The notes under the pieces: generated by a model
Told to the model about the DNA's origin: nothing
The model's input: only the letters and a program-made list of their open reading frames with translations
Database searches by the model: none
Shown here: in pieces, positions 7,779 to 27,645 of the stretch
Numbering within the stretch: the first letter of the stretch is position 1
How the letters are laid out: the number at the start of each line of letters is the position of its first letter
Made by a program: the position numbers and the translations under genes
Source: Zestosphaera tikiterensis
GTDB taxonomy: Archaea; Thermoproteota; Thermoprotei_A; Sulfolobales; NBVN01
Reading direction: 5' to 3'
Length of the DNA: 32,000 nt
Assembly: GCA_003056265.1 (NCBI GenBank)
Contig: NBVN01000003.1
Coordinates: forward strand, 60,001-92,000

Positions 7779-7854
<76 letters not shown>

Positions 7855-13203: not shown

Positions 13204-13316
13204 TGGCGCCGGGGGCGGGATTTGAACCCGCGCGCCCCAGAGGGGCAGTGGGTCTCACGTAGTGTTTTGCCGGATTGACTCGAGCCCACCCCCTTAGACC
13301 GCTCGGGCACCCCGGC
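13204..13316 (-). tRNA. tRNA-Ser (anticodon CGA) with a ~25-nt intron at the canonical 37/38 position (about 13254-13278); CCA encoded
   Basis: Reverse complement: GCCGGGG/TG/CCC-GAGCGGTCTAA-GGG/G/GTGGG-CTCGAG[TCAATCCGGCAAAACACTACGTGAG]A-CCCAC, then a long variable arm (TGCCCCTCTGGGGC..), then GCGGG-TTCAAAT-CCCGC/CCCCGGC/G/CCA. The class-II variable arm and G73 discriminator fit Ser. Confidence 0.9.
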
Positions 13317-15835: not shown

Positions 15836-16375
15836 TTGAAGAGGAACTCCACCATCAAGCAGAGAGGAAGGCTTCTTAAAGTAGTTGACGTAGAACCTAT
15901 AACGACTTACAACCCCAGCATCGATTTAGAGATGCCGGCACTTAATTGCTACTTAGAAAATGGCGAGACATTCACGCTTTATAACGTTCCGTTTGACATA
16001 GCTAAGGCTATAACAGCCCTTAGAAGTTCTTACGCGGAAATAGACGTTGAGGGGGATGACTCCTTCGACGGGAGGGGGACTATATATGACGTGATGATAA
16101 TGTTCTCACCTAGGCTTACAGAACTCCATAACTCAATAAAGAGGGTTGTCATAGATTCTTACGACGTTGGCAAAGGTGTATACAGCGCCAGCCTATATCT
16201 AGAGGTTGATAACTTAACAGTTAAGAAGACTTTAATACCTAGCCACGCTTTATTCCTAGCTATGTTATTTAAGAAGCCTGTCTTCGTAACCGAGGAAGTT
16301 CTTGAAATATCTAAAGAACTTGGCGATGAGTTTTTCGGAGAGTCGGACGACGAAACAACTTTTAAGGACGTTTAA
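15836..16375 (+). CDS. Hypothetical protein with a divergent bifunctional-nuclease (BFN/DUF151)-like domain
   Basis: TTG start 7 nt after GGAGGT (15823-15828). By eye it aligns to the BFN layout: ETFTLYNVPFDIAKAITAL / RGTIYDVMIMF / IKRVVIDSYDVGKGVYSASLYLE / LIPSHALFLAMLFKKPVFVTEEVLE. The usual RP..HDL and RPSDA residues are replaced. The tail is acidic. Confidence 0.55.
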   Translation: MKRNSTIKQRGRLLKVVDVEPITTYNPSIDLEMPALNCYLENGETFTLYNVPFDIAKAITALRSSYAEIDVEGDDSFDGRGTIYDVMIMFSPRLTELHNSIKRVVIDSYDVGKGVYSASLYLEVDNLTVKKTLIPSHALFLAMLFKKPVFVTEEVLEISKELGDEFFGESDDETTFKDV

Positions 16376-16384
16376 CCTTAAGAG

Positions 16385-16828
16385 CTACCTAACGGGCTTC
16401 TGCTTCTTACCCTTTAATAGAGCGTCTAAAGAAACGCCGTTAACCATTATGACTTTATACCTAACCCCCGGTAAGTCACCCATAGACTTACCTAAAGTAC
16501 CGCCTATACCCGCGATTATTACCTCATCGTGTTCGTCAATAAACGTAATGCCACCGTCTTGCGGGACGAACGCCGTAACTACCTTACCGTTTTTAACAAG
16601 CTGAACCCTAACACACTTACGCAGAGCTGAGTTAGGCTGTCTAGACTCAATACCAACCTTCTCTAGAACTATCCCTCTAGCCATTGGAGCACCTTCTAAC
16701 GGATCGTACTTCTCCTTAAGCTTAAGCATTCGTATCTTAAACTCTCTCTGACTCCACCTAAACTTCAGCCTTTTCAACCTAAGCTTCCTAGCGGCGTAAA
16801 GCCCTTTAGGTGCTTTACTTCCAGGCAC
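16385..16828 (-). CDS. rps12: 30S ribosomal protein S12 (uS12)
   Basis: [28 protein letters not shown] core. GTG start 7 nt after GGTGAT. Confidence 0.95.
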
Positions 16829-16873
16829 CGACTAATCACCACATGCTTGAGGCTCCATCTTTTAAGGCGGGGT

Positions 16874-16891
16874 AAAAGCTTATAAGCTTTT
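16874..16891. promoter_or_regulatory. Perfect 18-nt palindrome AAAAGCTTATAAGCTTTT: TATA/BRE-like element, candidate bidirectional promoter (rps12 on -, GC-rich block on +)
   Basis: Its centre lies about 54 nt upstream of the rps12 GTG and about 26 nt upstream of the G-rich block starting near 16909 on the + strand. Confidence 0.45.
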
Positions 16892-16908
16892 TGTAACTTT
16901 ATGTTTTT

Positions 16909-17100
16909 GGTGTTGGGTGTGGGCAACCGTAGCTTGGGATGAGACCCACACCTTCCCGGAGCTGACGGCGGGAGCTGATAGATGATGCGCCCCCGGTGAG
17001 GGGCTTCAGAGAAGTGATGGAAGCCCTAGAGGGAGAACCCCTCTTAAAAACAACAGGGGCCATCAGCACCTACAGCCTCGCTATTTATGAAAGTGGAGAA
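16909..17100 (+). ncRNA. Candidate structured RNA, family unassigned (GC-rich block A)
   Basis: About 62% GC over 16921-17040 (hand count 75/120) with G>C on the + strand. There are several 6-10 bp helices, a TATA-like box upstream and a T6 run downstream. No ORF longer than 30 aa. See findings. Confidence 0.35.
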
Positions 17101-17242
17101 CACTTATAAGTTTTTTGCTTGTATACCCACGCATGTAGGCCAACTGCCTAGCGAAGCAGTTTTAAGTTTTATAGGTGTTGAATAGGTATTAATAGTGCTT
17201 CATTTAGTGGTGGGTTTATAAGTTTTGCTAGCGCTATCGTAA

Positions 17243-17455
17243 AGTGAGGGTTGGGTTGACGATTCGATGAGGAGACGGAGGTAAGGATGAAACCCAACCT
17301 AATGAGGCCCTACCTTCGCTTGAGGGAGTCTAGCGGAGCGATGCGGAAGTCTAAGGCAATGAAGCTAAGCTCTCGAAAAGCGGGGGGTGGAGCGAGGATA
17401 GGGGCGATGAGTACCTACGTATGCAAACGAAAGCTTACATAGGTACGAACCCTAA
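17243..17455 (+). ncRNA. Candidate structured RNA, or a leader plus a 51-aa basic micro-ORF (17287..17442); unassigned (block C)
   Basis: TTTATAAG box at 17215-17222, purine/G-rich + strand, three helices of at least 9 bp, GGAGGT 4 nt before ATG 17287. See findings. Confidence 0.3.
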
Positions 17456-17457
17456 AG

Positions 17458-17901
17458 TTATGAAACGCTAACTACGTCTATATCGTAGTATCGTTTTAAG
17501 ATTACCCTAACTTTATTAACGTTACGTCCGTTCTTACCTATCGCTAACCCTTTATCCTCAGGCATTACTTTAACCTGCAATATCTTCTTACCGTCTTTAA
17601 GCTTGTTCAACTTTATGCTAACTACCCTTGCAGGCAGAAAGAGATTCTTAACGAAGTCTTCAAGTGAGTCAGCCCACTCAACGACCTCAATCCTCCTGCC
17701 TAAGATCTTAGAGAGTTGCTTAACGTTCTTTCCTTTAGCACCTACAGCTAAGCCGGCGGTTCCTGGGGGGACTATATATATTAACGTGTTAGACTCTTCA
17801 TCGACGATGCAGTCCTTAGCCGTAATCCCGGTGATGTCGTTTAAAAGTGCTATATACTTAAGCTCGTCCGCAGTTAATTTTACAGGCAAATCACTTCTCA
17901 C
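17458..17901 (-). CDS. nusA: Archaeal NusA-like protein (two KH domains)
   Basis: Two GxxG KH motifs (VGAKGKNVKQL, IGKNGRNVNKV), about 147 aa, in the position after rpl30e. The GTG start overlaps the rpl30e stop by 11 nt. Confidence 0.85.
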   Translation of the reverse strand: MRSDLPVKLTADELKYIALLNDITGITAKDCIVDEESNTLIYIVPPGTAGLAVGAKGKNVKQLSKILGRRIEVVEWADSLEDFVKNLFLPARVVSIKLNKLKDGKKILQVKVMPEDKGLAIGKNGRNVNKVRVILKRYYDIDVVSVS

Positions 17902-26123: not shown

Positions 26124-26230
<107 letters not shown>

Positions 26231-27017: not shown

Positions 27018-27102
27018 TAAGATTAAAGTACTTCCTTGCTTTATATATGGTTGACTTCGAAAACATAAAGAAATAAAATGTGTGAAGTTAATGCATTTCT
27101 TG

Positions 27103-27150
27103 ATGATGTCTACCTCCGGAACTGACGATGATGAAAAGGCATTTGTCTGA
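27103..27150 (+). ncRNA. C/D box sRNA (2'-O-methylation guide)
   Basis: C box ATGATGT 27103-27109, 12 nt, D' box CTGA 27122-27125, 2 nt, C' box ATGATGA 27128-27134, 12 nt, D box CTGA 27147-27150. This is the canonical archaeal spacing, in an intergenic location. Confidence 0.75.
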
Positions 27151-27295
27151 ACATCTTAAACACGTTATTGAGGTCGTCGCGTGGGTTTTACATCACGAAT
27201 CAGCGCTTATAGACCTACTTCATCCCAGCCATTTAATAGTCAAAGAGTTTAAATACATTACGTAGTTTAACCATGTGTAAGGCCTGTGAGGTGTG

Positions 27296-27523
27296 ATGAT
27301 GAAAATACTTGGGAATGTTACGATCCCTCTGCTACTAACTCTATATGGATTGATTTGGATTTCCTTACAACCGGTTATGATATACGTATTAAGTAGGGTC
27401 TTCGGTTCATCCTTAATAGGGCAGATATCGGGGTTCGTAACTTACGGATTAATCAACGTAGTGTTTCTTTACAGCTGGTTTAAACTAGCTAAAGCAATTA
27501 GAGACAGTAAAATCTTGGATTGA
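27296..27523 (+). CDS. Small hypothetical membrane protein (2 predicted TM helices)
   Basis: GAGGTG SD at 27288-27293 followed by ATG ATG (27296/27299). Two hydrophobic segments, no recognised family. Confidence 0.4.
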   Translation: MMKILGNVTIPLLLTLYGLIWISLQPVMIYVLSRVFGSSLIGQISGFVTYGLINVVFLYSWFKLAKAIRDSKILD

Positions 27524-27645
27524 AGCTCAGCGCTACAGTGGTTCTTCATCAATCAGTCCGCCCGTCGTTAACTTCATAGCCATAACCTTAATACTTACGC
27601 GACTATTTAACTTTTTAGTGGGTAATAATTTACGTTGAAACCCTT

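Follow-up and report, generated by a model that had tools for sequence, protein, structure and literature searches.

A strain-variable insertion with a candidate structured RNA gene in the nusA-rps12 spacer of the archaeon Zestosphaera tikiterensis

Between the genes for an archaeal NusA-like KH protein (nusA) and ribosomal protein S12 (rps12) of Zestosphaera tikiterensis lies a gap of 629 nucleotides (nt; 16829-17457), in which the longest open reading frame (ORF) has 56 aa. All positions refer to the window, that is, the whole stretch of 32,000 nt that was analysed (assembly GCA_003056265.1, contig NBVN01000003.1, forward-strand positions 60,001 to 92,000). The gap is an ordinary short nusA-rps12 spacer plus two insertions, A and B, in one strain lineage (Table 1). 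Insertion B, with its roughly 305 bp, forms a complete small gene cassette, in which an AT-rich part with a TATA-like box is followed, after about 27 nt, by a G-rich part for an RNA of about 210 nt, antisense to the operon, that we call RNA B. We put the probability of the whole reading, a short spacer with two insertions of which B is a mobile-type cassette carrying a promoter and a folded non-coding RNA of a family outside Rfam, at roughly 60%.

The history of the spacer can be read from relatives and from strains of the same species. S12 loci were taken from 80 species-level genomes and the gap was measured where nusA lies upstream, as it does in about 60 relatives. There it covers about 10-150 nt overall and typically 45-75; the gap in the window, to which a preliminary description made from the sequence alone had drawn attention, is far longer. 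The source lineage is uncultured and Desulfurococcales-like, with its nearest other NusA sequences 77-79% identical; in the nearest other lineage (NusA 78% identical) the spacer has 76 nt. The relatives' spacers, whose alignment the description had suggested, proved to have no similarity to that of the window at any of the 80 nusA-S12 loci, either by blastn or by nhmmer. Conspecific strains are represented by metagenome contigs 98-100% identical to the window, and their short forms have a spacer of 98-110 nt. In two such contigs, L088 and L092, window position 16842 is joined straight to 17062, and 17150 straight to 17451, while a third, L086, shows the first of these junctions; the stretch of insertion A is exactly missing from all three. 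The short-variant junction reads ATCACCAC followed by CTACAGCC, with nothing between. Beside the S12 start the short form therefore runs from ATCACCAC into CTACAG (CACCAC joined to CTA), and since this junction resembles the outgroup sequence CCACCACCTAAG, the short spacer is ancestral. The converse, that the short variants are deletions from an older long spacer, was rejected for A on the same match. The right copy of the 8-nt repeat, ATCAGCAC, forms the start of the ancestral segment S, and a TATA-like box within this segment, at 17103-17115, is likely the original S12 promoter. Long and short forms (contigs L117 and L092) occur together in one sample, JGI 3300005801, and several assemblies break within the spacer, as is expected of a polymorphic site. 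A short G-rich block at about 17128-17160, listed separately in the preliminary description, consists of the last part of the ancestral spacer and the first bases of insertion B.

Folding gives block B a free energy of -75 kcal/mol on the + strand (z -3.4) and of -57 kcal/mol on the - strand. Since the + fold is better, by 18 kcal/mol, and since neither the G.U pairs nor the GA motifs hold on the opposite strand, the RNA is read on the + strand. Three hairpins are predicted. The tandem G.A pairs of hairpin 1 join 17261-62 with 17289-90, the apical loop of hairpin 2 reads GGAAGUCUAAG (17345-17355; family consensus GGRAGKCUAAG), and the C.A pair beside the bulge of hairpin 3 becomes U-A in L117 and in a further contig, L118. 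The geometry from TATA-like box to first helix resembles that of the tRNA genes in the window, and RNA B would be made from its own promoter at this box.

Relatives of block B were found by proxy, namely by a protein-collection search with the 51-aa ORF that is open in B. DNA searches of phage and plasmid collections gave no match, a two-motif pattern scan of metagenomes found nothing, and neither did a scan of viral contigs with the hairpin-1 pattern. The proxy search returned the same locus in L117, 98.4% identical, and a different locus in L118; a profile search of 1.84 billion representative proteins added four further small ORFs, two of which could be traced to DNA (L119 and L120). The L118 copy includes the AT-rich part and the TATA box, has a MazE/PhoU-domain gene on one side and a gene for a tyrosine recombinase on the other, and runs in the same direction as these neighbours. 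The recombinase gene (L118 2112-2471) starts 42 nt past the end of the copy, its N-terminal part has archaeal XerA as best match, and its position beside the copy could be chance or meaningful. A covariance model (CM) built from three close copies matches L118 at 261 bits (E 2e-71), L120 at 90 bits (E 1e-24) and L119 at 73 bits (E 6e-20); on the family models R1/R2 the window's B scores 257-272 bits, and L118-L120 match significantly. L119 and L120, the more distant copies (73-78% identical), share the RNA core only and not the flanks, so that the core stands, 73-81% identical, at four loci with unrelated flanks. In L120, 180 nt separate the family member from a tRNA 3' fragment upstream of it (530-627; T arm, acceptor strand, CC and a T run, with no complete tRNA); past the family member come ORFans and a weak fragment of an archaeal integrase, below the Pfam cut-off. 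These surroundings look like the edge of an integrated element.

The pattern of change among the copies points to a folded RNA. Only 3 of the 16 positions that vary among the close copies lie in the stems of the minimum free energy (MFE) structure computed from the window alone, although that structure pairs 117 of the 208 positions (hypergeometric P=0.0018), and two of these three in-stem changes keep or weaken the pair rather than abolish it. Across the five-sequence alignment 95.9% of cells are paired, and 11 pairs of B have changed on both sides, versus 3.7±1.5 in shuffles (none of 500 reaches 11) and 0-2 in controls with slid partners. When hairpin 2 is aligned by MAFFT, blind to structure, three compensatory pairs and many compatible one-sided changes remain, and such changes in this hairpin appear in CM-based and MAFFT alignments alike. 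RNA B is one of a small family of structured non-coding RNAs, present at four or more loci in related hot-environment metagenomes, and the family is conserved as base pairing and not as protein sequence. The preliminary description had proposed structured + strand RNAs in both G-rich blocks. For the right block (17243-17455) the proposal is borne out by the fold, the three other loci, the substitutions that avoid stems and the covarying pairs; for the left block (16909-17100), which has no homologue elsewhere and whose fold is not kept, it is not. Nor do the RNAs belong to the RNA polymerase and ribosomal-protein cluster, as had been thought, both blocks being absent at this site from conspecific strains and from all relatives.

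Table 1. Positions in the window of the spacer features and of the two genes that border them.
Feature	Position	Strand	Remarks
RNA B (predicted)	17246..17456	+	~210 nt, three hairpins; fold, CM matches, covariation
Hairpin 1	17248..17300	+	10-bp stem, GAC bulge, tandem G.A, U.U pair, 20-nt purine-rich loop
Hairpin 2	17307..17393	+	conserved family core; 73-81% identical across four loci
Hairpin 3	17399..17453	+	GGGC-GAU-GA-GUACCUA...UAGGUAC-GA-ACCC; kink-turn-like
TATA-like box TTTATAAGTTTTG	17215..17227	+	centre ~27 nt before first helix; conserved in L118
Insertion B	17151..17450	+	300 nt relative to short-spacer strains; flanked by CCTA; empty site in L088 and L092
Repeat unit B shared with second locus	17145..17453	+	L118 1754-2069, 89.6% identical
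51-aa ORF	17287..17442	+	inside RNA B; GGAGGT at 17277-17282; open in all copies found
Ancestral spacer segment S	17062..17150		89 nt, common to all strains; 93-99% identical in L088, L092 and L086
Insertion A	16843..17061	+	219 nt; AT-rich left part and G-rich part; absent from short-spacer conspecifics
Left 8-nt direct repeat ATCACCAC flanking A	16835..16842		complement of the S12 Shine-Dalgarno region; short-variant junction
Palindromic TATA-like box AAAAGCTTATAAGCTTTT	16874..16891		box enrichment
Putative block A transcript	16909..17116	+	ends at T6 run 17111-17116; status uncertain
rps12 (S12)	16385..16828	-	147 aa, GTG start; ORF list
nusA (archaeal NusA-like KH protein)	17458..17901	-	ORF list; gene callers place start at 17889 (143 aa)

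Two of the hairpins have the layout of kink-turns (K-turns). Hairpin 1 agrees with the K-turn at every position (canonical stem, 3-nt bulge, tandem G.A, non-canonical stem), is the best K-turn-like match in the window, with the longest C-stem (10 bp), and keeps its core letters in L117 and L120. Hairpin 3 follows the consensus but for the C.A pair beside the bulge. The protein L7Ae binds K-turns in many small RNAs, among them box C/D and H/ACA RNAs, RNase P RNA and signal recognition particle RNA, and in mRNA 5' regions, as seen by RNA immunoprecipitation sequencing (RIP-seq) in Sulfolobus acidocaldarius (PMC5539422). Like such L7Ae-bound RNAs, hairpins 1 and 3 are laid out as a box C/D terminal motif (stem, 3-nt bulge, tandem G.A, U.U third), and like the mRNA K-turns on which L7Ae was reported (PMC5539422), the K-turn of hairpin 1 overlaps an AUG. 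In contrast to them, the K-turn letters of the B family are conserved only in part, and for this reason the idea that one or two hairpins of RNA B form K-turns and would bind L7Ae stays a reasonable but unproven proposal.

RNA B fits no class of RNA with which it was compared. At gathering level an Infernal cmscan of the window against Rfam 15 reported only two tRNAs elsewhere and no family in the spacer; a scan of 16750-17550 at E<=10 gave chance-level matches of at most 16 bits, and L118-L120 gave nothing at E<=0.1. The earlier impression that the spacer resembles no known RNA class is thus upheld. Neither tRNA, RNase P (type T included), signal recognition particle RNA, 5S, group I/II introns, HEARO/omega nor Hgc/SscA scored near its gathering threshold. 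A box C/D small RNA (sRNA) was considered and rejected: the best Rfam match is sR43, at 11 bits versus a gathering score of 45, and block A has CUGA twice, at spacings of 18 and 16 nt, with no D box after the second guide. Unlike box C/D sRNAs, which have 50-70 nt, RNA B is about 210 nt long and has neither C/D or C'/D' boxes with 12-nt guides nor any CUGA. A canonical box C/D sRNA does occur in the window, at 27103-27150 (+) in its other large gap (27018-27645), laid out as AUGAUGU - 12 nt - CUGA - CG - AUGAUGA - 12 nt - CUGA and unreported by the Rfam gathering scan; it looks quite different from RNA B. An H/ACA sRNA was likewise rejected, the predicted hairpins having small internal loops only, with no ACA after any B hairpin and no Rfam match; unlike H/ACA sRNAs, B has no pseudouridylation pocket. 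AT-rich hyperthermophiles reportedly possess GC-rich non-coding RNA genes, Hgc and SscA, and these are perhaps the nearest in kind: the blocks too are local enrichments of G+C, intergenic, in an AT-rich thermophile genome, and the Hgc and SscA RNAs too are structured, of 100-200 nt, orphans in function and in some cases members of small paralogous families. The likeness does not extend to a match in sequence or structure to HgcC, HgcE, HgcF, HgcG, SscA or any other Rfam 15 family; moreover, the host of B is crenarchaeal, and the gene varies between strains and travels together with its promoter. B is an orphan archaeal structured RNA in a family of its own.

Block A is laid out similarly to B, with an AT-rich part that carries a promoter-like box and then a G-rich part. 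Its palindromic box AAAAGCTTATAAGCTTTT could drive both S12 on the - strand and the G-rich part on the + strand, with a predicted start at about 16909. The distance from TATA box to S12 Shine-Dalgarno motif is 45 nt from the box in A versus 42 nt from the ancestral box at 17104, and insertion A may be tolerated because it supplies a replacement TATA box at nearly the original distance from S12. Block A also folds well (MFE -82 kcal/mol, z -3.6). L117 carries insertion A with 11 differences between 16965 and 17067, of which 7 fall in predicted stems and 4 break pairs, and an apparent compensatory change, 16974/17067, hinges on the choice of fold. A tRNA-like reading of part of the block (CCGUAGCU) found no support from tRNA models. 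Block A could be an RNA gene, either changing fast or decayed, or simply inserted DNA.

Several observations weigh against our reading. The window's structure of block A scores -65 on the L117 sequence versus -82 for the MFE of L117 itself, and neither look-ups nor protein searches of its ORFs found a second locus for it. The likeness of A to B comes down to two short collinear motifs (D3 and D4; alignment p about 0.01-0.02), and A is matched neither by the hidden Markov model (HMM) nor by the two covariance models of B; that the two are paralogues or the result of a tandem duplication is not established. As to the K-turns of the B family, the key G17261 of hairpin 1 is changed to A in L118, L119 is without the 5' arm of this hairpin, the K-turn motif of hairpin 3 is unclear in L119, and hairpin 3 of L120 is rivalled by a predicted terminator-like hairpin; loose K-turn patterns occur 26 times in the window by chance. 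The family consists of only five sequences from four distinct loci and is subject to ascertainment bias, since its members were picked up as called ORFs, and the main five-sequence alignment was fitted to the model. Promoter use, the ends of the RNA and L7Ae binding are all matters that we infer. Targets of the conserved loops within the window do not rise above chance beyond the purine bias of coding strands, and the evidence on how the insertions arose is the repeats of 4-8 nt only.

It is possible, if unlikely, that both blocks are non-functional remnants of DNA from outside or from a mobile element, which stayed behind at a permissive intergenic site after illegitimate recombination, or after integration and excision, and which drift neutrally. 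Both are dispensable, being absent from conspecific strains, their junctions have short repeats only, the predicted fold of A is not conserved, and the L120 copy lies near the tRNA 3' fragment, the ORFans and the weak integrase fragment. Furthermore, the window and L117 differ at 17 positions (16965-17418), all inside the insertions, while 455 nt of coding DNA on the flanks show no difference. This confinement suggests exchange with other alleles or copies, or else very relaxed constraint. However, neutral debris is not expected to avoid substitutions in stems (P=0.0018), to show covarying pairs, to keep an RNA core 73-81% identical at four loci, or to keep the TATA box and its spacing, as in L118. 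For block A alone, debris is quite possible.

Archaea harbour small non-autonomous mobile elements, among them miniature inverted-repeat transposable elements (MITEs) such as SM1-SM4 of Sulfolobus and elements derived from IS200/IS605. Like these, unit B has about 300 bp and no protein gene, is present or absent between near-identical strains, has a second copy at an unrelated locus and short junction repeats, and is preceded on the left by TGCCTA at both loci (window and L118). Unlike MITEs, it has no terminal inverted repeats, and its end hairpins differ from each other; terminal inverted repeats were likewise not found for A. A MITE was rejected on these grounds, the flanking repeats being of 8 nt for A and 4 nt for B and the two full B units found being 10% apart. 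When an IS200/IS605-type element was considered, the RNA was seen to end at the right boundary of B, the end hairpins to be dissimilar and the distant members to be without the ends, and these observations neither support nor refute such an origin of B. No transposase or TnpB was seen in the short flanks that are available. A connection to mobile elements through integrases is only suggestive and was not accepted, because the L118 recombinase resembles chromosomal XerA and the L120 fragment is sub-threshold. Since distant members share the RNA core and not the ends, the conserved entity is taken to be the RNA gene and not a transposon. A bolder scenario, which we regard as improbable, is that unit B is a miniature integrative cassette of about 305 bp, composed of a promoter and a K-turn RNA gene, that inserts site-specifically beside TGCCTA with duplication of CCTA and is moved in trans by a recombinase of the host or of an element, or else guided by its own RNA; this RNA would be the cargo or the targeting part of the element, and A would be a diverged second member 90 bp away. 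If true, this would amount to a so-far undescribed kind of archaeal mobile element.

Some short matches to other DNA were set aside. Two viral contig matches, of 19 nt and 24 nt, lie inside unrelated ORFs (L094, an AT-rich contig, and a long ORF of L121, a viral contig of 50% GC) and are taken as chance. A metagenome scan with the single motif D4 gave 22 chance matches; one of these, a bacterial lipoprotein gene that shares the reading TGAISTY..AIYE with A, was likewise judged to do so by chance. The same judgement was reached for the 19-26 nt that this gene (L099 4988-5026) and a phage ORF (L121 442-470), two unrelated protein-coding genes, share with blocks A and B, although they are read there in the frame that is also open in the blocks (TGAISTY, MRKSKAMKL).

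That the spacer RNAs are cis regulators, acting as antisense or leader RNAs on the formation of the nusA 3' end or on expression of rps12, rps7 and EF, seems very improbable. Their setting invites the idea, since the two blocks run antisense to the operon, RNA B meets no T run until 17492 and would read about 40 nt into nusA, and A separates S12 from its old promoter while adding a - strand T5 run (17045-17049) and a new TATA box. However, the blocks are missing at this site from conspecifics and all relatives, and the other family members stand in unrelated contexts, with the L118 copy co-directional with its neighbours. Because of this absence, and because the family elsewhere is unlinked, any effect on the operon would be a side effect of the landing place.

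It is also conceivable that the product of block B is a small basic protein, about 51 aa long, translated from GGAGGT-N4-ATG and regulated by a K-turn over the start, in the manner of L7Ae-controlled mRNAs. No stretch of the family is better conserved than the one that holds the Shine-Dalgarno-like motif and the ATG, the start codon falls within the K-turn of hairpin 1, and L7Ae has been reported on K-turns in mRNA 5' regions (PMC5539422). The frame is open in all copies, from which gene callers predict products of 43-52 aa. Yet this openness is not evidence, because the copies were found through the open ORF, and T-poor sequence seldom makes stop codons anyway. The 13 changes between the window and L118 affect 11 codons, of which 10 are changed non-synonymously and one synonymously (7, 4 and 2 changes at the three codon positions), no pair in the family has an excess at third positions (11/14/12, for example), and indels in the family (+1/-1, or 1+2 nt) shift the frame locally. 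The ORF has no Pfam match and, judged by these substitutions, shows no sign of coding constraint. We consider a protein product the least probable of the alternatives.

The remaining features of the spacer and its surroundings agree largely with the preliminary description. Its account of a 629-bp spacer poor in ORFs holds, as the coordinates of the flanking genes and the length of the longest ORF show, and so does the tight packing from rpoH to nusA, where junctions range from an 11-nt overlap to a 6-nt gap. The G-rich blocks with their + strand skew are equally real: GC reaches 0.56-0.63 at 16900-17060 and 0.51-0.56 at 17260-17460 versus 0.44 in the whole window, and + strand GC skew is positive across both stretches. 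Boxes of TTATAAG with a T run had been noticed in the spacer, which has three of them, and the corresponding box YTTATAAGYTTTT is enriched tenfold in the window (6 copies versus 0.6 expected), with four of the six copies in the spacer (16874/16879, which form the palindrome, 17103 and 17215). No decayed protein gene was detected in the spacer: its three longest frames have no Pfam match, a 616-aa concatenate of six-frame open stretches of at least 25 aa matched nothing at E<=10 among 5.8 billion proteins, and exact look-ups found none of its ORFs on record. The assignment of rps12 is backed by Pfam PF00164 on identical genes in metagenome contigs; its product is 64-92% identical to S12 of relatives, and a Shine-Dalgarno-like motif, GGTGAT, precedes the start by 7 nt. 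On the opposite strand between rps12 and rps7, at 15836-16375 (+), lies a gene for a 179-aa protein with a BFN domain (PF02577), which is kept at this position in most Desulfurococcales and Sulfolobales relatives; more distant archaea are without it there, and S12 and S7 abut. The three tRNA genes that had been named all exist, at 7779-7854, c13204-13316 and 26125-26230, the last two with introns. The second, tRNA-Ser(cga) at 13204-13316 (-), has a 25-nt intron and was missed by the Rfam gathering scan and by default ARAGORN and found with the intron option; the third (+) was called with anticodon tta and a 24-nt intron.

Our best guess is that RNA B is a trans-acting small RNA, possibly bound by L7Ae, on a movable gene cassette. 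The cassette would have arrived by insertion at the DNA level beside the TGCCTA/CCTA motif, perhaps through site-specific or microhomology-mediated recombination, and the RNA, transcribed from its own promoter, would act through its conserved single-stranded loops, the apical one of hairpin 2, with 11 nt, and the one of hairpin 1, rich in purines, with no specificity for nusA or rps12. The family is a candidate for a new structured RNA family, with covariation support and no match in Rfam, in uncultured Thermoprotei, whose non-coding RNAs are little charted, and if its K-turns do bind L7Ae it would be a new class of L7Ae partner. Its history at this site indicates that strains otherwise about 99% identical can differ by the gain or loss of a whole RNA gene together with its promoter, even inside the most conserved cluster of transcription and translation genes. 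For annotation, this means that where a tight operon contains a long gap, a recent insertion may be the cause and not a conserved regulatory RNA of the operon.

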